Below, in pieces: positions 35-30,526 of a stretch of 48,387 nucleotides of DNA (position 1 is the first letter of the stretch; each line of letters starts with the position of its first letter). Position numbers and translations under genes: made by a program. Origin of the DNA: a virus (lineage: Duplodnaviria; Caudoviricetes); the IMG/VR virus record IMGVR_UViG_3300035544_000029, positions 1-48,387 of that record. One strand, 5' to 3'. The notes under the pieces are model-generated. The model did no database searches. It saw nothing but the letters and a program-made list of their open reading frames with translations, and was not told the origin of the DNA.

Positions 35-128
35 GCATAACAATGTATAAAATTAATGCGCTATGTTACGTTAGTGCTATTATTTAAGTGTTGTGGTTAG
101 CGCACTAATCTTATACTAACCGTTATAG
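35..128 (+). repeat. attC-like hairpin A
   Basis: GCATAAC (35-41) ... GTTATAG (122-128); left arm aac-aat-gtataaaattaatgcgcta matches the reverse complement of the right arm, aac-ggtta-gtataagattagtgcgcta. Confidence 0.8.
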
Positions 129-139
129 TCCAGTTTGCC

Positions 140-394
140 CTAAAAATGTTCTCCACATTCTAAACACATTTCATGGTGTTTACCAGTAACAGCAATATTA
201 TCAGAGCCGCAGTTTGGGCAAACCGTATCTATAACAAGCGGTAATACACCATTATTTTTAACTGCTTCCTGTAAAAATTTCATCATCTTCCTGCTATTAT
301 TAGCACTCGGGCGCTCAAATATTCTAAATTCTTCCTCCACCTGTTCAAGTAGTTCATTAAGTTCTTCCTGTGTCATAATTGTTTCGTTTTTCAA
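140..394 (-). CDS. small Zn-ribbon protein, cassette-borne
   Basis: CPNC...CLEC motif; the ORF starts inside hairpin B (likely ATG near 376) and reads through its left arm (NGVLPLVI). Confidence 0.65.
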   Translation of the reverse strand: MKNETIMTQEELNELLEQVEEEFRIFERPSANNSRKMMKFLQEAVKNNGVLPLVIDTVCPNCGSDNIAVTGKHHEMCLECGEHF

Positions 395-434
395 ATCCGT
401 TAAAAATCACGGTGCATACCGCCAGCCGTTATAA
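229..434 (+). repeat. attC-like hairpin B
   Basis: CTATAAC-aa-gcggtaatacacc ... ggtgcataccgc-cagcc-GTTATAA; the flank gggcaaac..ctataac is complementary to the cassette start gttatagtccagtttgccc at 122. Confidence 0.8.
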
Positions 435-9227: not shown

Positions 9228-9279
9228 AAATAATGAGATGTATATCGTATTAAAACGACGCCATACATGGGGGTTATCC
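9228..9279 (+). repeat. decayed short attC-like hairpin
   Basis: atgtat..cgt-attaaaacg-acg..atacat-gggg-GTTAT; same loop as hairpin F. Confidence 0.45.
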
Positions 9280-12374: not shown

Positions 12375-12462
12375 TGGTAGCGGGAGATGGAATCGAACAT
12401 ACACTTTCATTCGATGTCTCTAGGTTATGAGCCTAGAATGTTGCCAATTACACCACCCCGCA
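12375..12462 (-). tRNA. chimeric tRNA-Met(CAT)-like gene with an aberrant variable/T region
   Basis: GCGGGGTGGTGTAATTGGCAACATT-CTAGG-CTCATAA-CCTAG ... GTTCGATTCCATCTCCCGCTACCA; the 5' T-stem strand does not pair. Confidence 0.6.
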
Positions 12463-13208
12463 ATATATTTTTTTAATTTATAAAATTCTAATTCAACAAA
12501 TTCCTTGTTAAATTTACCTAAATCTTTAATAATATATGGTTCATAATCTAATTTGATTATTTCATTAATTTTTATCTTATCTCTATTTTGAACTTGTTTT
12601 AAAGAATGTTTCTTAGTTATTTGTTTATAATGCCAAATACCATTCCATAAAACAGCTAATTTATAATCATCGATGATTATGTCAGCATCCCATTCATTAA
12701 ACATCTTTTTATTAAAATAAACTACTTTAAATTCTTTTTCACATAATTCAGCAAAATATATTTCATTTTTACTACGTTTATTTTGTGATTGTGCTGATGC
12801 TAATCCACCACTTCTTTCATGACCTTTTAAAGGTAAATTATATTTTGTTGCACATGATTTAGAACAAAATCTTTGTTTCGTTTTTTTCTGTTTAAAAACC
12901 AAACCACAAAAATCACAATTAATTTCACGTGTTTTACTAAATTTCTTTGATAAAAGAAATTTATTCTGCTCACTCATTACTCTTTTATTAGAACAACTAC
13001 GTGAACAATAATATTTCTCTTTCTTTGGAAAGAGTTTTTCACGTTCATTAATAATTATTTCTTCACCACAAGCATTACAATTAACCTTGAAATCTTTATA
13101 TTGACCATACTTCTTATTATTCCTAATTTTACTCTGATGTTTGTTTTGACAACTAATACTACAATATTTATTAGTTACATCATTACCACAAAATAAGCAT
13201 TTATTCAT
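12420..13208 (-). CDS. Zn-finger repeat + Vsr/EDxHD-like putative homing endonuclease
   Basis: three CxxC...Y/FCSxSC repeats, then SKNE...DADIII...LWNGIWH...RDKIK; very AT-rich. Confidence 0.7.
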   Translation of the reverse strand: MNKCLFCGNDVTNKYCSISCQNKHQSKIRNNKKYGQYKDFKVNCNACGEEIIINEREKLFPKKEKYYCSRSCSNKRVMSEQNKFLLSKKFSKTREINCDFCGLVFKQKKTKQRFCSKSCATKYNLPLKGHERSGGLASAQSQNKRSKNEIYFAELCEKEFKVVYFNKKMFNEWDADIIIDDYKLAVLWNGIWHYKQITKKHSLKQVQNRDKIKINEIIKLDYEPYIIKDLGKFNKEFVELEFYKLKKYIAGWCNWQHSRLIT

Positions 13209-13244
13209 AATATTCAAATTTATTATAAATACTACGATATATTT

Positions 13245-13305
13245 AATCGAACCATCATACTCCTTCTTACGAGACAGGGCTGTAACCAACTTCAGCTATC
13301 CCGCT
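13245..13305 (-). pseudogene. 5' part of an interrupted tRNA (anticodon loop CT-CGT-AA)
   Basis: AGCGGGA-TA-GCTG..CAGC...GATGG-TTCGATT; pairs perfectly with CCATC-TCCCGCT-ACCA at 12375-12390. Confidence 0.75.
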
Positions 13306-13609: not shown

Positions 13610-13825
13610 TTAATTCTTGTTATTTTTTGCGAATTTATCAGGGATAGTAATTCCTAACGCCAGGGTTATTAGCCCCACAATTACTCGCAAGACCTCCGGG
13701 TCTTTGTCATCAATGACGGCATAGATGAATAGAGCAAACGCCACAATGGCAATGTGCCGCTTTGATGATGGATTGCCGTCAGCATCCAATAGCATCCCCT
13801 TAATCCAATTTAATAATCCTCGCAT
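13610..13825 (-). CDS. small two-TM membrane protein (holin-like)
   Basis: G.PSSKR followed by two hydrophobic helices. Confidence 0.6.
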   Translation of the reverse strand: MRGLLNWIKGMLLDADGNPSSKRHIAIVAFALFIYAVIDDKDPEVLRVIVGLITLALGITIPDKFAKNNKN

Positions 13826-14310
13826 ACCTTTTTAATTATTGTTTGTACTTGACCCTCCAAGTGGCCCATATCTCTGTGATTCAATATTACATTGTCGAAC
13901 ATACATCCGTACTTGTAGTCTTTGTCTCTGTCAAATCTCTCGGGTGTTGTTCGTTGCTTTCGCTCTTCCGTGGGAGCCAACACCAATACTTTTGTCACTT
14001 CAAACCGAGGGTCTTCCATTAACATCTTCAATCCCACTTCATCAATAACGTAGGAATAGCATGGCTTGTTTCCGAAAATAACACCACAATATTTGTACCC
14101 TCCATATACTGTTTCAGCAATTTTACCCTCTATCTTACCAAAGGCTTCTTCGCTAACAAACACATGATGTGTGTCATTTTCGTCTCTTTTAGGACGTGTC
14201 GTATGAGAAGTTACTGGCGGAATCCCATGCTTTTTTAGAATATCTGCAATGGTTGATTTCCCAGATCCACTCTTCCCAATGATGGCTATTATTTTTATTT
14301 TTTTACTCAT
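13810..14310 (-). CDS. guanylate-kinase-like P-loop kinase
   Basis: IIGKSGSGKST, SHTTRPKR..E, FVS. Confidence 0.85.
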   Translation of the reverse strand: MSKKIKIIAIIGKSGSGKSTIADILKKHGIPPVTSHTTRPKRDENDTHHVFVSEEAFGKIEGKIAETVYGGYKYCGVIFGNKPCYSYVIDEVGLKMLMEDPRFEVTKVLVLAPTEERKQRTTPERFDRDKDYKYGCMFDNVILNHRDMGHLEGQVQTIIKKVCEDY

Positions 14311-14567
14311 TGTCAATAACAAATTTAACTCCAAAAATTTCTTTGATAGTCCTATGCTTCTTAACGCCATTGTAACTCATATTGTGCTTAATGGCATATT
14401 ATGGTATTGTTTGCAGGTTCAAATAACCTCCGGCACGTTCAATGAATTGAACTAAAAAGCCATTTGGATGGTCGCTTTGCATCACATATTTATGCAAGTT
14501 CAATTCAAGTTTTCTCTCAAACTCCTTATATGTAAGGCTTTCCATATGGTTCAATTTATTGAATTAA

Positions 14568-14582
14568 TGTTACAATTACGTT
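14568..14582 (+). repeat. putative cassette insertion target, copy 1
   Basis: TGTTACAATTACGTT, identical to 17237-17251, at the left border of a cassette array. Confidence 0.65.
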
Positions 14583-14601
14583 GTGTTGCATTAAAAACGA
14601 C

Positions 14602-15018
14602 AACACAACACGCAATATAGCAAATACTACGTGCGTGTGTCGTTTCAGCGTCAGTGCTTATTCGGAGCAAAATGCCCCCACCGCACAATTAAACAGGCGT
14701 AATGTCAAGGTAATACTCTTTACCTTCTTCAAACGCATTGCTGGCCTCAGTTTCATAGCTAATTGTTAGCGACAAACTACCAGCGGGGGTAAACTTTGAA
14801 AAGGATTTATTTTCATCACTGCCTTCCAAAACAGGTGAAAATTCAACTTCCTTTTGTTCAAATTCTGGGGAATCTGTAATTCCCACACATTCAAATTTAG
14901 CTCTAACTTTACTCATAATAAAAAGGGTTTTACAAAGCCCGCCCAAGGCATTTTTTGTTCTGTCGTTGTTTGTTAGTTAATTTTTTGCCGTACGTGCCAT
15001 ATTGCTTACACGTTATAG
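14602..15018 (+). repeat. attC-like hairpin C with a whole gene in its loop
   Basis: ACACAAC-ac-gcaatatagca...tac / gta.gtgccatattgc-ttacac-GTTATAG; the start gttgtgttg (14580) complements caacacaac. Confidence 0.7.
14689..14916 (-). CDS. conserved small phage protein (cassette-borne)
   Basis: MSKVRAKF.C...EN..F.K.TP.G...F..GKEYYLD. Confidence 0.75.
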   Translation of the reverse strand: MSKVRAKFECVGITDSPEFEQKEVEFSPVLEGSDENKSFSKFTPAGSLSLTISYETEASNAFEEGKEYYLDITPV

Positions 15019-15034
15019 TGCATTTGCCCACGCA

Positions 15035-15301
15035 CTACGGAAGTTCAATATAGAAACCCCCACGCTCAACCATCACTTCCATTCCTGCAATCTCTTCTTT
15101 GTCATAACCTTCCTCAATCAATTCCGACTTAGTTCTTAATTCACATGGGTCGTCATCACCTGTCCAAATCAAATGACTGTTACTAATTTTGGCATCACCC
15201 AGCCCGCTCAATGTTTTATTACTTGCAACCACTATTAAATCTTGGTTTAATTGCTCTTTACTCATTTTGTCGAGCTTCTTTTTTAAGTCTTTAAGTTTCA
15301 T
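15035..15301 (-). CDS. hypothetical protein (cassette-borne)
   Basis: single ORF between GTTATAG (15012) and CTATAAC (15337). Confidence 0.65.
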   Translation of the reverse strand: MKLKDLKKKLDKMSKEQLNQDLIVVASNKTLSGLGDAKISNSHLIWTGDDDPCELRTKSELIEEGYDKEEIAGMEVMVERGGFYIELP

Positions 15302-15336
15302 CTTTTACTGTTTTAATGCCTACCCGCAAAAACGCA

Positions 15337-15468
15337 CTATAACATGCGGTCATAAAAAATTGCGGTGTAAGCGGTTAATATTTAATTTTCTACATTTATT
15401 CAAGTTCATTGGTTAGCGGAAAGTCGTGCAGTTAAATCCGCAACTTTTCATACCGCCAGCCGTTACCC
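15337..15468 (+). repeat. attC-like hairpin D
   Basis: CTATAAC-at-gcggtcataaaaaattgcgg ... ccgcaacttttcataccgc-cagcc-GTT; gcactataac complements the cassette start gttatagtgc. Confidence 0.85.
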
Positions 15469-15872
15469 ATACTCTTAATGCTCTCATCAGGAAGCCATAT
15501 TTCTCGATAGGGCTTTTTAACATACTCTTCTAATGGGTATATTTTATCATTTGCTTTGAAGCATTTATGGGTATGACCCTCTATGTCTATCACGTTGCAA
15601 TGGTTTTTCAGGTTGCAAGCAGACATAAATCTCATCCAATGAATCCTGTCTATACCAGGATTTCCAAATGATTTCAGCCCTAAAGCCTCCTGAGTCTCCA
15701 TGTTTCTCTGTAAATCATCAGCAATAAATTGCTTTTGATCATCACTCCACCTCTCCCAATATGCCTCCACCAACTGTGATGGAAGCATAGCGGAAGAGAT
15801 GGTTTGTCTGTTCATGGCATACCTAATAGCCATAATACAGGTTTCCCATTCTATTTCTGTGAGTGGTTTCAT
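15432..15872 (-). CDS. hypothetical protein; C-terminus supplied by hairpin D
   Basis: MAIRYAM.RQT...W motif; last codons (NGWRYEKLRI) read through the attC-like arm. Confidence 0.7.
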   Translation of the reverse strand: MKPLTEIEWETCIMAIRYAMNRQTISSAMLPSQLVEAYWERWSDDQKQFIADDLQRNMETQEALGLKSFGNPGIDRIHWMRFMSACNLKNHCNVIDIEGHTHKCFKANDKIYPLEEYVKKPYREIWLPDESIKSMGNGWRYEKLRI

Positions 15873-16120
15873 AATACAGCTACTACGTTTTCGTACAGCA
15901 CCAGAGACGTTCCGTCCTCCAATGGCACTTCCGTGTTTTGCTTATACAGGATGTGGTCTCCGGCTTCCAAGTTAATAGGATGTTTGGGCGTTCCTTTACC
16001 TGTGCGTAACACTTTACCAATGGACGGCTTTATGTTTTCAGCGTTTGGCAGGAATATTCCTGCTTTAGTAGTCTTATCGACTTTTTTCTCAATGATGATT
16101 TTATTTAATATTGGCTCCAT
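15869..16120 (-). CDS. groES: GroES-like co-chaperonin (second copy)
   Basis: KTTKAGIFLP...GKVLRTGKG...GDHILY. Confidence 0.8.
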   Translation of the reverse strand: MEPILNKIIIEKKVDKTTKAGIFLPNAENIKPSIGKVLRTGKGTPKHPINLEAGDHILYKQNTEVPLEDGTSLVLYENVVAVL

Positions 16121-16123
16121 AGC

Positions 16124-17203
16124 TTAATTATTTATCATTAATGGCATAATAAGAGATGTCATATTGTCTTCTCCTTGGATAATGGCCGCACGCGAGGGTT
16201 CTGACATCTTAAATGTTACTTCCTTGCTGTTTATGTTCCTCAATAGCCCGGCCAAAAATATTCCGTTAAAACCAATGGTTATATTGGCATGACCCTCGTA
16301 TGTCATTTTCTCTTCCCCTGAACGGCCAAATTCTATGTCGGAAGCCGTAATGACAAGATTATTGTTTTGAAACGACATATTAACCACATGGGAAATATTG
16401 GACACGCTTACAATCCTGGATAGGATGGCTTGAAGAGTATTTTTGTCTAACTTGGCTTCTTGGCTGAACTCGGTTGGAACAACAGACCTATAAGCAGGAT
16501 AATGACCCTCTTGCTTAACTTGAACAATGCGTTTGTTACTTGATTCTAACACTACTAAACCGCTATTGCTTTTGACTGTTATTTCAGACCCTCCCATTGA
16601 CGGAATGTGAGAAGCAACGTCCAAGGACAGCAATAGGCTTACATTTTCTTTGGGTTGACCCTCAATGTGTTCCGTCATTACCAATCTGTGACTGTCTGTA
16701 CCAACAAATGTAATGTTGTCCTGCTGAATATCCATATTGACAGAACTGAATACTGGCCGGAGGTCATCAGGCACGATAACACTCTTGGCGGCATTAACAG
16801 CGGAGATAAACTCTTCTCCTGTAAATGTCACAACCTCTTCGCAATCAGAGCTGTCGTAGTTTGGATAGTCCTTTGGGTCTTCCATAGCAATCTCATACTT
16901 TCCGTTTGAGTGTTTTACAATTAGCCTGTGCTTAATGAAGTCGGGAGTAATGTCAAGATTGCCTGATAGCTTTCCGATAAGGTTCTTGAAGTCCTGCCCC
17001 GATACGGCAAAGCTAATATCCTGACTCGAATCCACGGAGAGTGACGTGTAGAAGCCTGTCTCTTGGTTAATGCCCCTCATATACATAACATTGTTTTTAA
17101 CGTCACATACAATATTGGCATGAGCCGGAATGATTGTCTTTGATTTGATTCCTCTGGCGCAAAATGTTAGCGCATAATTTAGTTCTGATTGTTCTACATT
17201 CAT
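16124..17203 (-). CDS. dnaN: DNA polymerase III beta subunit (sliding clamp)
   Basis: 359 aa; RPVF, GTDSHRL, G.YP.Y..V.P, IGFN..FL, LIMP. Confidence 0.92.
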   Translation of the reverse strand: MNVEQSELNYALTFCARGIKSKTIIPAHANIVCDVKNNVMYMRGINQETGFYTSLSVDSSQDISFAVSGQDFKNLIGKLSGNLDITPDFIKHRLIVKHSNGKYEIAMEDPKDYPNYDSSDCEEVVTFTGEEFISAVNAAKSVIVPDDLRPVFSSVNMDIQQDNITFVGTDSHRLVMTEHIEGQPKENVSLLLSLDVASHIPSMGGSEITVKSNSGLVVLESSNKRIVQVKQEGHYPAYRSVVPTEFSQEAKLDKNTLQAILSRIVSVSNISHVVNMSFQNNNLVITASDIEFGRSGEEKMTYEGHANITIGFNGIFLAGLLRNINSKEVTFKMSEPSRAAIIQGEDNMTSLIMPLMINN

Positions 17204-17236: not shown

Positions 17237-17251
17237 TGTTACAATTACGTT
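17237..17251 (+). repeat. putative cassette insertion target, copy 2
   Basis: TGTTACAATTACGTT, identical to 14568-14582. Confidence 0.65.
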
Positions 17252-18071
17252 AGTGGCAATGCTTACCGAACACTCGACCAACAGCCAACTCATAGTATTT
17301 TACCTCTTTTTCAATCCCAATAAAATGACGGTTCAACTCCTTTGCTCCTAAACAAGTTGTGCCTACTCCCATTGTGTTATCCAAAATCATATCATTTTCG
17401 TTTGAGTACGTGGATATAAGGTATTTTACAAGTTCCAAAGGTTTTTGAGTAGGGTGTATTGGCTTTGGTTCATTATTAAAATTTAAAACAGTGGTAGGAT
17501 AGTTTGTATATTTTTGCAAATACTCTTTTGATTGTGATTTTCTATAATAATTATGCCCTTCAAAATCAGCACTACATTTATTTTTATCTCCATGCCTTGT
17601 TTTATTTATTTCTATTAAACCTTGCGGATTGTAAAGCATAATATTTTCATTCCCTGCCGCAGTAATAAATTTTGAAAAAACGGATATATTTTCATTTTGA
17701 TTTAATGGTCTATTTTTTGAATTTAAAAATCCAGTTTTTCTACTTTTTACCCAAATCCAGTCATACTTATACCATTCTAAATTACTTATTCTTAACATTG
17801 TAGAAAAAGGCTCTGCTCCAAATAAAACAACAGCACCATTATCTTTTATAATACGTTTATATTGTTCCCAAAGTGGCTCTAATGGTATTATACTATCCCA
17901 TTTGCAAGCAGTTGTACCATAAGGCAAATCTGCCAAAATTAACTGAACCGATTTATCAGGAATAAGAGGTAAAATATCCATACAATCAGCATTGAACAAA
18001 GCACTGCCACTAACATCGGCTATATGCAATAGCGGGTTCGGTGCGTTATTCAACATTTGTTCTACTATCAT
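17250..18071 (-). CDS. N6A/N4C DNA methyltransferase (beta class), cassette-borne
   Basis: DLPYG, HPTQKP, LDNTMGVGTT, FIGIE; N-terminus encoded within hairpin E; stop codon lies in the GTTA core. Confidence 0.92.
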   Translation of the reverse strand: MIVEQMLNNAPNPLLHIADVSGSALFNADCMDILPLIPDKSVQLILADLPYGTTACKWDSIIPLEPLWEQYKRIIKDNGAVVLFGAEPFSTMLRISNLEWYKYDWIWVKSRKTGFLNSKNRPLNQNENISVFSKFITAAGNENIMLYNPQGLIEINKTRHGDKNKCSADFEGHNYYRKSQSKEYLQKYTNYPTTVLNFNNEPKPIHPTQKPLELVKYLISTYSNENDMILDNTMGVGTTCLGAKELNRHFIGIEKEVKYYELAVGRVFGKHCH

Positions 18072-18137
18072 ATTTTATCTATTATTTAAAGTTTTGTGTT
18101 TCTAATCCGCTACTGCACATAGCCGTAGCCGTTATAC
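18008..18137 (+). repeat. attC-like hairpin E
   Basis: CACTAAC-at-cggctatatgcaatagcgg ... ccgctactgcacatagccg-tagcc-GTTATAC; agcactgccactaac is 14/15 complementary to the cassette start gttagtggcaatgct (17249). Confidence 0.88.
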
Positions 18138-19864: not shown

Positions 19865-19919
19865 CAATAACAGTTTTGTGAAACGGAGCGTAAAACGACA
19901 GCACATAAAAGCATTAGCA
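19865..19919 (+). repeat. decayed short attC-like hairpin
   Basis: CAATAAC...gtg...gtaaaacgac...cac...ATTAGCA; attagcattaatac complements gtaccaatgctaac at 20358-20371. Confidence 0.45.
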
Positions 19920-19930
19920 TTAATACTACG

Positions 19931-20329
19931 TTAGTACTCATAATCAACACCAAGCAATATAAAATCTACAGATTCAGAGTAGTATCCGTTACTTTCGCCA
20001 TACCATCTAATATCTACATATCCTTTGATTGTTGCGAATTTGTAATAAGTCCAAGTACAAGAACCCCACTCATCCGCTTCTTTTGTTCGTTCAACATCTT
20101 CTTTAGAAGTTGGCTGGTAATTAGAAACTTCTTCCGCTTTTAGTATTGGACTTCCAACTAAATCTTGTAAGTCACCAACTATATCTTCAATCGAAACACT
20201 TTCGCAACAATCTTGTCCGTGATACATTTTATATTGCTTTCCATCTTCGCAAGTAAATATTATCTCGTCATTGCCTTTGTTTTCTACTTTAGTAAGTGTT
20301 TTGCCAATCAATTCTTTTAATCTTTCCAT
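19931..20329 (-). CDS. conserved phage hypothetical protein (cassette-borne)
   Basis: [26 protein letters not shown]...[24 protein letters not shown]. Confidence 0.8.
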
Positions 20330-20364: not shown

Positions 20365-20417
20365 TGCTAACAATGTGTACCAGGCATTAAAACGACTTGT
20401 TACACTCAGCGTTATCA
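20365..20417 (+). repeat. short attC-like hairpin F (53 bp)
   Basis: TGCTAAC-aat-gtgtaccagg-CATTAAAACGA-cttgttacac-tcagc-GTTATCA. Confidence 0.75.
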
Positions 20418-22156: not shown

Positions 22157-22448
22157 GACTTTTCGTTTTTGTTTGTAACAAATGTAACCTCTATCTATGT
22201 GAAAAACAAGTTAAAGATGCTTAAAAGAAGTGTATTTAACATAATGCGCCCACCTCCATTGTGGATAGATTTTAGCTTCGCTACGAACATCAGGATGGCT
22301 GTCGGGGATGTTTGATGTAAGACCCTCTGATTGGTATTTCCGTAAACACTCATTTTCGCATTTTTCTGCGAAATGAGGGAGACATTTGATTAAATCATTG
22401 TTCAATTATTAATAAATATCTATTAAATATCCAGTAAATCTTGTAAGT

Positions 22449-22545
22449 GTGTACTTTTTTTACGCCATAGTGTAGTTTTTTTACACCATTGTGTAATTTT
22501 TTTCGTCTAAGTGTATTTTTTTTACTCGGCATTGTATTTTTTTAA
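22449..22545 (+). repeat. five ~21-bp tandem repeats (iteron-like)
   Basis: GTGTAN-T(7-8) units at 22449, 22470, 22491, 22511, 22532. Confidence 0.75.
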
Positions 22546-22614: not shown

Positions 22615-23340
22615 ATGAGTTATAGTAAATTCAGAAGCCTAAAAAACGGCTACAAGACATTAAAGGCAAAAGACATTGGAGGGTATGCCAAGGTAGAGTA
22701 TTCATTGATTGAGGATGAAAGGCTAAGACCGTCATTCAAATTGGTGTATGCGTACTTGCGTTCGTATATGAACCTAAAGACACAAGTATCATCCGTCTCC
22801 ATATCATTATTGATGAAAAAGACGGGTTATTCCAATGGAACTATCAATGAAGCTATAAAGTCATTAAAGAGGCATGGCATTATTGATGTGGAAAAAAGAG
22901 CGTCAAAGGTTCGTGATGATGCTTATAGTGTCTATCGTTTTAAAATTAATGATGAGCGCTTTGCTATGATTTCAAATATCTTCTTGGATTCAAGTAAACT
23001 AACATCAAAGGAAAAAGAATTTATAATCTTAATATTCCCATATATATTAGAAAATGATACGATAGGCTCTGTCTTTGAGCCAGTAACATTAACATCACTT
23101 GCAAAGAAAATCGGGCTAACAAGGGCAACCGTAAGCGATCGGATTGAATCATTGAAGTTAAAAAATCTATTGTTTGATTATTATAGTAGAAATGGAGGGA
23201 GAGAGCATTACACATTCGTAGGTTATGAATTAAACATGAAAGAAATAATGCTTGACAACACAAACCAAATAATAAAAGAAAGGAATGAATTGTATGAAAT
23301 AGTCAGAGAGAATGGAATTACTTATGAAACTAAATGTTAA
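22615..23340 (+). CDS. double-HTH protein, putative replication initiator or regulator
   Basis: two HTH-like segments (SISLLMKKTGYS..TI..AIKSL; LTSLAKKIGLTRATVS.RIESL); follows the iteron-like repeats. Confidence 0.65.
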   Translation: MSYSKFRSLKNGYKTLKAKDIGGYAKVEYSLIEDERLRPSFKLVYAYLRSYMNLKTQVSSVSISLLMKKTGYSNGTINEAIKSLKRHGIIDVEKRASKVRDDAYSVYRFKINDERFAMISNIFLDSSKLTSKEKEFIILIFPYILENDTIGSVFEPVTLTSLAKKIGLTRATVSDRIESLKLKNLLFDYYSRNGGREHYTFVGYELNMKEIMLDNTNQIIKERNELYEIVRENGITYETKC

Positions 23341-28260: not shown

Positions 28261-29289
28261 ATGGCACTACCTACTACGAATCTAACCATGACGGCAGTAA
28301 GGAATGCTATTGGTGAATCTTCCAATAAGCTATCTGAATTGGTATTGTCTCCAAAAGTAAATCAATTTGGATTTAACGTGCCGGAAAGTATTCAATTAAA
28401 TACATTCTGGGGAAAAACTGTTGCCGAAAGAACGGACACTGCATTTAATTATCCGTTGGGATTATTCAGGGCTTACGATCACGATTGGATTGCTTGGTCG
28501 AAGCCAATCCCTGTAACATCAGATGTTGATGTTTCTCAGGATTTAACAACTCTAATCGGGCTTAGGAAGGCAGCACCATTTTTAGAAACAAAACCTTATG
28601 TGGCAGTAGCTCATAATTTCACTGTTGAATTTTCCAGAACAGATAACTTTAATAAAGGAGGAGGAGTTGAAATATTTACAGGCAATGTTACAGATAGCTT
28701 TGAAGTTGTATTCAGCAAGCAATATCCTCCCGATGGAGGTGTAGCGTTAAATGTAGGGGATACGTATTATTTAAATATTATTCACAATTCATCCCCTGAT
28801 CGAAGATGGTTTATTGAGGGTTCAAGTCTATCGCAAGCCAACAGCGCAGGGGATAATTATATTTATCAACAAGAAGTCCCTGCGGGTGGAGAGGTTTCTT
28901 ACTCCTTAAATATAATAAGTGAGTTTTATGTTGCATCAGAAAATTATAGTGACACCTTGAAATATCAAGCAGTGGCATCCTTGACTTGCAGGCTTGTTAA
29001 GACAATAGACGGGGTAGCCCAGACAGGTGCAACGGCTAATTTGACGCTTGAAATGCACACTGAAACAACTACTGGCCTAATAGGGAATGCAGTTGATATT
29101 TCAAAAAGTATTTCTACCGATCAGGACACCACGTTTAGTTTGCAGGCAAGTTACCCCAAAAACAGTGATACAGAGATTGGAGACACCTTATACATTGAAT
29201 TGTATTCTACTTATTTCAGCGTTGGGGATAACAACATATACAGCACTCGCACGGGCGTAGTTATACAGGACGGCCCTGCGCCAATATAA
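28261..29289 (+). CDS. tail-fibre-associated structural protein
   Basis: MALPTTNLTMTAVRNAIGE...LG.FR.YDH N-terminus; beta-rich remainder. Confidence 0.65.
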   Translation: MALPTTNLTMTAVRNAIGESSNKLSELVLSPKVNQFGFNVPESIQLNTFWGKTVAERTDTAFNYPLGLFRAYDHDWIAWSKPIPVTSDVDVSQDLTTLIGLRKAAPFLETKPYVAVAHNFTVEFSRTDNFNKGGGVEIFTGNVTDSFEVVFSKQYPPDGGVALNVGDTYYLNIIHNSSPDRRWFIEGSSLSQANSAGDNYIYQQEVPAGGEVSYSLNIISEFYVASENYSDTLKYQAVASLTCRLVKTIDGVAQTGATANLTLEMHTETTTGLIGNAVDISKSISTDQDTTFSLQASYPKNSDTEIGDTLYIELYSTYFSVGDNNIYSTRTGVVIQDGPAPI

Positions 29290-29719: not shown

Positions 29720-30526
29720 ATGCCAAGTTATAGCAAGTACCCAATAGCGATAGAATACACAAAAGACGACTTCCTCACTGGCAAGCTGCCAAATGGGGAG
29801 GTGCGTCACTTCACTTCTGACGCTGTGTTGGAGTTTATGAAAACATGGCTTCCTGATTTGGAAGTTAGCTTTAATAATGTGGAATCTATTACATTCGACA
29901 CAACGAATGAGGCTACACCAGCCATTGGAGAAATAGCTTGGAATGATTCTGACGGGACGATAGTTATTGGAGTAGTTGGAGGGTCTATCAAAATCCAAAC
30001 GATCGATAAGGAGATTCACGCTGCTACGACTAAGACAACCCCTATTGATACAGACGAATGGGGTGTATGGGATAGCGTCAATAGTGCATTAAGAAAAGTA
30101 ACATGGGCTAACATTAAATCTACATTAAAAACTTATTTTGATACTATTTATCAAGCTGTTTTAGTTTCTGGAACTAATATTAAAACTATCAATTCTGAGA
30201 GTATTTTAGGGAGTGGTAATATTGAAATTGATGCAGATAATACAATAACAATTCAAACCAAAACCGCCGCGTTCAATTTAGTCTCAGGCGATGAGGAAAC
30301 TTATATTCGATACACAGGTGCAAGTGATATAAATGTTACCGTTCCAAACACATTAAGAATAGGTCAGCCGATAACAATTTGGCAGGCCGGGGCAGGAGTA
30401 ATTACGTTAGTCGGCGATACCAGTGTAGTATTAAACGGTGATCTAAAAACAGCAGGACAAAATAGAGGCATTCAAATTATGAAAGTAGCAGATAATTTAT
30501 TTGATGTGATAGGAGGTGTAGCATGA
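29720..30526 (+). CDS. tail fibre protein (second)
   Basis: N-terminus similar to the 24939 gene; TWANIK.TLKTYFD, LVSGTNIKTIN.ESILGSGNI. Confidence 0.75.
   Translation: MPSYSKYPIAIEYTKDDFLTGKLPNGEVRHFTSDAVLEFMKTWLPDLEVSFNNVESITFDTTNEATPAIGEIAWNDSDGTIVIGVVGGSIKIQTIDKEIHAATTKTTPIDTDEWGVWDSVNSALRKVTWANIKSTLKTYFDTIYQAVLVSGTNIKTINSESILGSGNIEIDADNTITIQTKTAAFNLVSGDEETYIRYTGASDINVTVPNTLRIGQPITIWQAGAGVITLVGDTSVVLNGDLKTAGQNRGIQIMKVADNLFDVIGGVA

Follow-up and report, generated by a model that had tools for sequence, protein, structure and literature searches.

A candidate integron-like mobile cassette with its gene inside the hairpin loop in a Caudoviricetes phage genome

Introduction

A short stretch of a tailed-phage genome raises the question of whether a gene that lies wholly between the arms of a long attC-like hairpin, behind an empty cassette body, belongs to a mobile cassette, and what such an inside-out layout says about how cassettes arise. 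The first making of integron cassettes has no reliable model (PMC4792948; PMC8618304). The window, meaning the whole stretch of DNA analysed here, is a complete linear IMG/VR record (IMGVR_UViG_3300035544_000029, 48,387 nt) whose genome completeness was judged to be 42%.

Results

Genomic context

The plus strand of the window encodes the terminase, the portal and virion genes, and the minus strand carries small early genes. The host is probably a member of the Bacteroidota, to judge from the closest relatives of the genes and sites. At least two attC-like sites were present with no integrase alongside, and no tyrosine recombinase gene is encoded in the window, both within a contig fragment that is 42% complete. 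Rfam covariance models run against the window gave only one tRNA and one chance match (E up to 1), and blastn of the array against annotated phages gave a single irrelevant match.

Several other features were recorded. The tRNA gene (12378-12462, minus strand) overlaps the terminal part of an HNH endonuclease ORF (12420-13289, minus strand), and an IS605-type TnpB gene lies within the phage at 5233-6531 on the minus strand (Pfam OrfB_IS605, Cas12f1-like). The octamer GACCCTCT is found in 31 copies against 0.95 expected, from 2938 to 45632, on both strands and in genic as well as intergenic positions. Four T-rich tandem repeats of 20-21 nt at 22435-22537, directly upstream of a replication-initiator-like gene at 22615, are possibly origin iterons.

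Structure of the unit at 14580-15011

The features of the unit and of the other cassettes in the window are shown in Table 1. The empty body is closed by GTTGTGTTG (14580-14588), which pairs with CAACACAAC (14601-14609) in a perfect hairpin. The sequence-only reading had described an empty body with an 11-nt mini-loop; the body stood, but the loop here (CATTAAAAACGA) is 12 nt long with five A, one A longer than the 11-mer CATTAAAACGA. This extra A of the loop starting at 14589 is absent from the contigs of three other runs, and the canonical cap is therefore the 11-mer. An early idea that the A tract was a target duplication found no support.

The AAC at 14607 closes the empty body and also begins a long attC-like hairpin of 408 nt that runs to the GTT at 15012, and the whole ORF was found between the two arms, AAC/GCAATAT and ATATTGC/GTT, as had been proposed. 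The core GTT and the inverse core AAC are complementary inside the unit, and each heptamer differs by one letter from GTTRRRY/RYYYAAC. On each strand, the fold of the 439-nt stretch beat all 100 shuffles (z -3.3); the long stem is absent from the centroid fold on either strand. A search of the fetched loci for an empty precursor of the 408-nt hairpin gave only a 64-nt match of 73% to its left half.

Table 1. Positions of the unit, its gene and the other cassettes and sites in the window
Feature	Position	Strand	Basis or remark
attI-like target flank TGTTACAATTAC, preceding crossover G|TT	14568-14579	+	Direct repeat D12; other cassette starts directly after 14582/14583 in relatives
Empty cassette body, 30 nt: 9-bp GTT..AAC stem and cap loop 14589-14600	14580-14609	+	Hairpin search, folding, relatives, family covariation
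Left arm of long attC-like hairpin: inverse core AAC 14607, short spacer, L stem GCAATAT 14612-14618, loop entry AAT	14607-14631	+	
Right arm: ATATTGC 14999-15005, 6-nt spacer, GTT 15012 opening next cassette	14988-15014	+	Unit end 15011; different cassette after 15017 in one relative
75-aa phage gene, PHROG 6978, no Pfam; wholly within hairpin loop	14689-14916	-	
Upstream leader of 75-aa gene, likely small pseudoknot	14925-14949	-	Present also before non-cassette homologues
Next cassette, ordinary layout: 88-aa ORF 15035-15301 (-) in body; hairpin 15341-15464	15012-15461	+	Body swapped for 304 other letters in run X4
DNA methylase cassette: ORF 17250-18071 (-) begins in hairpin 18012-18133 and crosses left arm	17249-18130	+	
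Mirror layout: DUF7448 gene 19931-20329 (-) in body; cap CATTAAAACGA (20385-20395) as hairpin loop	19913-20410	+	
Cassette with ORF 140-394 (-) across left arm of 195-nt hairpin (233-430); hairpin 39-124 precedes	122-427	+	
Probable decayed loop-type site, one mismatch to cap, without AAC	9241-9275	+	Folding not above shuffles

All genes of the family units in the window lie on the minus strand. The 12-mer flank also stands ahead of the cassette at 17249, and this DNA methylase cassette has a 90% match in locus L080 with different neighbours. The hairpin of the next cassette also contains the end of a 146-aa ORF (15432-15872, minus strand), which runs through the right arm and has its stop in the loop, so that its last codons would have been altered by cassette insertion.

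In the window the exact 11-mer occurs once, at 20385. There it forms the loop of a short hairpin (20369-20413) with the gene in the body, in agreement with the sequence-only reading; the first G of this cassette has decayed to A. Two decayed copies had also been proposed. That at 9249 is plausible, with TGTAT/ATACA arms, a 5-nt spacer and GTT at 9273, but it has no AAC and folds no better than shuffles. That at 19890 was dropped, being beyond two mismatches from the 11-mer and out of register. At two mismatches the 11-mer gave 36 matches in the window against 25 expected, and 2 of 100 shuffles were as high. Counts in the window alone are insufficient to prove the motif, for which the proof is comparative.

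Breakpoints and mobility

Contigs of four other studies were compared with the window over 13800-16200. A 30-kb relative departs from the window at 14582 and matches it again from 15458, with 1974 different letters in between, and in two further runs a different cassette starts after 14582-14583. At the other end, run X4 contains 14594-15024 with one difference and then a next cassette with a different gene, and run X5 diverges after 15017. Four loose ends before 14578-14579 resemble hairpin right arms; these come from short contigs and may be parts of different cassettes that share this body. Among the viral loci, all six near-identical unit pairs (6/6) had unrelated flanks breaking at GTT, the right flank being missing in one. 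Crossover at G|TT between unrelated sites is seen here as natural breakpoints, not in an assay.

The arms had been expected to behave as one unit in related genomes, and the breakpoints at both GTT ends bear this out. The arm pairing score of the long hairpin is a modest 14, and a few chance pairs in the window score 12-13.5, which would suit an explanation in which the two arms are remnants of different cassettes pairing by chance around a resident phage gene. This explanation is largely refuted and very improbable, since relatives break at both ends, a homologous gene occurs in complete inside-out units with three different flanks, and 102 units share the same plan. To judge from its breakpoints, 14580-15011 is one mobile unit, and the inside-out layout is, on the comparative evidence, real, recurrent and mobile.

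The 75-aa gene in the loop

At 7 of the 19 metagenome loci, from about four lineages, a homologue of the 75-aa gene lies just inside a hairpin right arm; 0 of 14 viral homologue loci lie in a cassette. Three of the seven, L430-L432, probably belong to a single lineage; each is a complete inside-out unit, their capped body is not the one seen here, and the neighbours differ in all three. In L427/L428 the left arm is lost. None of the branches in a tree of the family was supported, and the tree gives no count of captures.

The leader of the gene can be drawn as an H-type pseudoknot; among the 6 rows compared (window, L129, L130, L427, L429 and L437), 2 carry one G-C to A-U change. Covariation over these rows is weak (30 of 500 shuffles), and the leader had no Rfam match. 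It may be a translational operator. The leader is common to the window, two viral homologue loci and two non-cassette metagenome loci. Because it also precedes homologues outside cassettes, the gene likely entered with its own leader. The loop sequence resumes directly after the stop of the gene. In one contig of run X7, 14945 is joined to 14607 through 30 letters with a body-like end, and this single-contig junction would put the 75-aa gene into a body that is followed by the same left arm.

Capped units in viral and bacterial collections

The strict pattern GTT-N5-GCATTAAAACGAC-N5-AAC was found at 49 sites in all of IMG/VR. The arms paired at 5/5 in 33 of these and at 4/5 in 14, and the partner arm beat the best of 20 shuffles in 40. 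When other closing pairs were allowed, about 310 stretches were obtained from the viral collection. A total of 119 distinct sites were examined (111 from the closing-pair scan and 8 added), and 108 of them pair at 5 or 6 of 6 positions. In the covariation set of 38 hand-picked rows, 5 hybrids included, 91.8% of cells were paired and 95 two-sided changes were counted against 31 in shuffled sets (0/500). Two-sided changes occurred at all six variable pairs of the cap stem, while CATTAAAACGA stays fixed.

The loose pattern behaved differently in the genome collection, where hairpin context was lacking at 115 of 119 sites and two of three "body" calls were due to chance; the bare 13-mer is therefore not diagnostic outside phages. 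Unlinked sites in the loose viral scans were 57 of 100 and 37 of 119, and a scan with the 15-nt target gave 100 matches, about chance level. The 401 Bacteroidota genomes yielded a single real capped body, which lies 2.5 kb from a XerA-like recombinase.

The placement of the cap in either body or loop, noted in the window by the sequence-only reading, recurs in viral contigs, with 102 distinct body-capped units that have a confident partner arm and 99 loop-type sites in which CATTAAAACGA is the loop of a short hairpin. The body-capped units have hairpins of 112-139 nt (15 units) or 183-1413 nt (87 units). In the 87 long-hairpin units the longest ORF is on the bottom strand in 85, on the top strand in 0 and absent in 2, with a median coverage of 75%. 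The bodies of the loop-type units (63 delimited) measure 204-1145 nt and carry bottom-strand genes. The bottom strand was the better folded in 14 of the 15 gene-less units, and arm mismatches favoured bottom-strand G.T by 14 to 4. The loop is entered by (C/A)AT in the same register at both ends, and other short loops too start with CATT and end with AACG(A).

Sites with two copies of the motif (n=39) comprised 31 adjacent cassettes, 7 others and one 70-nt unit capped at both ends. This last unit is a circular permutation, plus one A, of a loop-type/body-type junction 3.4 kb away on the same contig, and the crossing falls in a shared CAAATA. Hybrid arms were seen in L533, L080, L463 and L517. 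Around 1501-1529 of L503, a single capped body is seemingly common to two oppositely facing hairpins.

Recombinases and arrays in phages and hosts

A tyrosine recombinase was found in 10 of 40 phage records carrying capped units (4 of the 16 near-complete ones) and none in the remaining 30 (12 of the 16). In nine of the 40 records a recombinase without the IntI insert adjoins the array. All analysable phage recombinases (9/9) are 263-296 aa long with the array immediately upstream and its sites pointing away from the gene; phage arrays reach up to 18 sites. Their catalytic motifs appear intact, recombinase neighbours of related arrays fall below the TIGR02249 (IntI) cut-off, and the I2 insert of IntI is missing, with 35 residues where VchIntIA spans 83. 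From their position only, we infer that these enzymes act on the adjoining cap-family sites. In the phage platforms L622-L631 (records G404-G441), the attI-like flank is TATAT-rich and the genes are co-directional with the recombinase.

Host chromosomes carry related enzymes of 280-400 aa, with an attI-like site and hairpins of about 120 nt downstream (10 of 24 analysable loci). Among 75 phage cassettes, from arrays chosen for carrying a capped body, 75 ORFs were on the bottom strand versus 5 on the top, and among 38 host cassettes 42 were on the top strand versus 6 on the bottom. The phage cassettes included 26 ORFs that straddle an arm with the start codon in the loop and 6 wholly in the loop; two host "gene in loop" calls were discounted as mispairings of identical repeats.

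Role of the cap

The sequence-only reading had suggested that a gene can be added at either end of a capped stem, as a trace of cassette creation. A strong form of this holds that the capped stem is a pre-made acceptor of a dedicated cassette-making pathway, with new genes joined at either end. Gene-less minimal dumbbells were sought and found: 15 of the 102 body-capped units are gene-less, two near-identical gene-less pairs stand in unrelated flanks and so exist and move, and the 70-nt unit is capped at both ends. An attI-like flank precedes 14 of the 102 units, ORF stops cluster 18-27 nt from AAC in 42 of 85, and the 75-aa gene keeps its native leader with the loop resuming directly past the stop. 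The same genes were also found in body and loop positions (82% and 75% amino-acid identity), with the DNA match confined to the ORF and the borders unrelated; this fits independent loading but equally ordinary gene replacement. A whole-loop swap between the ends was rejected as unshown, the body/loop pairs sharing the ORF and not the borders.

Other findings speak against the acceptor pathway. The cap is not a requirement. Of 202 flanking sites that lack it, 43 measure at least 150 nt; gene-filled loops also follow other short bodies (38-80 nt) as well as bodies that carry a gene, and a whole gene in the loop was seen after bodies of 63, 80 and 195 nt and in the Polaribacter phage P12002L. The cap is nearly missing from host arrays, the presumed main birthplace of cassettes, where 0 of 38 bodies are under 70 nt and only the one genome in 401 has it. 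Neither a target duplication nor any other sign of joining was seen, and 0 of 63 loop-type units have a short body (the shortest is 204 nt), the double-capped unit apart. Such a pathway is unlikely. What held of the earlier suggestion is the cap at either end with the same genes in both positions; a place for the cap in a pathway that creates cassettes was not borne out, since gene-in-loop units do without the cap and it is rare in hosts. Capped units are a possible trace of cassette creation.

The 11-mer could instead be kept for a role in RNA, its transcribed strand UCGUUUUAAUG placing a UAAUG stop/start in a hairpin that couples translation across the cassette. In five gene-less units (L460, L482, L520, L530 and L578) an ORF of 41-45 codons ends exactly at the TAA of the cap, and the cap is enriched in phages, where the UCGUUUUAAUG strand is the coding strand. 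Against this, the gene stop lies 8-118 nt ahead of the cap in long units, the 11-mer is upstream of the gene in loop-type units, and at host sites, whose genes are on the opposite strand, the loop ends are likewise CATT..AACGA. An RNA role is improbable, more so than the acceptor pathway.

Comparison with known systems

The unit was compared with known systems through the accessible parts of PMC8946536, PMC2727003, PMC4792948, PMC8618304, PMC4889954, PMC5737381, PMC8352920 and 10.1101/2022.09.11.507474. Integron cassettes (IntI, attI, attC; class 1, Vibrio VCR) are alike in having GTT/AAC cores paired within the unit, G|TT crossover between unrelated partners, an unpaired central spacer, an L stem, a variable terminal loop, a tight ORF fit, ORF-less cassettes and arrays behind an attI-like site. 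They differ in hairpin length, attC sites being given as 57-142 nt in the part of PMC2727003 consulted, against 408 nt here and up to 1413 nt in the family. In the present unit the gene is in the loop on the bottom strand and not in the body on the top strand, the spacer is asymmetric (1-3 versus 4-6 nt), a fixed cap can stand at either end, and the associated recombinases are without the IntI insert. In hairpin length, gene position and enzyme, 14580-15011 is not a classical integron cassette.

Clusters of attC without an integrase were reported in virulent phages in the accessible text of Qi et al. 2023 (PMC9892861). Their P12002L_attC1 (30009-30055) is exactly a loop-type capped site, and it was the only one of six sites not recombined by IntI1 (PMC9892861). 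The P12002L clusters also share methylase cargo and the lack of an integrase in the phage; the cap, genes in loops and bottom-strand genes are not described in the parts of that paper at hand (PMC9892861). P12002L was found here to hold at least 11 cap-family sites with loops of up to 400 nt. The attC2 assayed in that paper (PMC9892861) overlaps the beginning of an oppositely read family cassette (L580, about 29175-29245 and 30003-30011) and may thus not be a natural site of the cap family.

In rAID-1 of Bacteroidales, as described by Ross et al. (10.1101/471110), co-directional genes lie downstream of a XerD-like recombinase and the repeated motifs between them are called "reminiscent of integrons"; the host arrays of this study share that plan (10 of 24 analysable loci). 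The phage arrays differ: the recombinase is short and has the array upstream of it, the genes are on the bottom strand, and the cargo is phage rather than immunity genes (10.1101/471110). As defined there, rAID-1 has a 5' XerD-like recombinase more than 44% identical to BF9343_RS08045, and the window has no recombinase. Insertions at attG and SALINs, in the accessible part of 10.1101/2022.09.11.507474, likewise are single cassettes or short rows at GTT-type sites with no nearby integrase, but here a 12-nt flank is common to two targets and the enzyme is not IntI.

Discussion

The reading favoured here, with a probability of roughly 0.6, is that 14580-15011 is an integron-like mobile cassette, likely moving as a folded single-stranded circle at G|TT with a XerA-like recombinase supplied from elsewhere. 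Single-strand exchange of the integron type is suggested by breakpoints at G|TT without partner homology and by the mild bias of folding towards the bottom strand. For single-stranded attC delivery, the accessible parts of PMC8946536 and PMC2727003 give loop length little importance, so a gene-filled loop would be tolerable in a replicating phage.

On the proposed mechanism, the excised circle would be a near-symmetric dumbbell whose two loops start with (C/A)AT at the same register and end AACGA/ACT-like. CATTAAAACGA would be the shortest loop retaining both shared ends, so that it would serve as the "empty" state at either end and spread with the units bearing it. Because phage transcription along the bottom strand would meet the loop first, genes would start in, straddle or fill it. 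Genes would enter the loop likely by ordinary phage recombination, the 75-aa gene with its own leader.

Bodies and loops would then be re-paired, likely through left-arm crossovers, for which one double-capped unit and a few hybrids are the basis; a recombinase without I2 may allow more of these than IntI. In the accessible part of PMC4792948, L-box exchange is rare with IntI (0.16% for IntI1) owing to I2 and extrahelical bases, and an enzyme without I2 may therefore perform it more often; no precedent for a single-stranded route without I2 was found in the same part of PMC4792948. A left-arm crossover re-pairs loops and does not carry a loop from one end to the other, and it gives no account of how one 11-mer reached both ends.

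A wider reading is that Bacteroidota phages have an integron-like system of their own, in which a recombinase without I2 cuts either end of the symmetric dumbbell, a CATTAAAACGA-capped blank is loaded with phage genes at either end, and the arrays, which run from 70-nt blanks to units filled with genes, show cassettes being created. This is tentative and rather doubtful. A literature search, with subscription papers mostly outside its reach, brought up no paper describing genes inside attC loops, a fixed cap or such phage platforms. Tools for finding attC sites are limited near 200 nt and would miss long-hairpin cassettes.

The units form a natural series: the double-capped blank, the empty body with an ordinary hairpin, and the gene in the loop, straddling an arm, and in the body. 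With this series, a candidate enzyme of about 270 residues and the cultured phage P12002L, the question of cassette origin becomes testable. Even on the plainer reading, the finding shows that whole genes are tolerated in attC-type hairpins and that phages have attC-like arrays adjoined by recombinases lacking the I2 helix.
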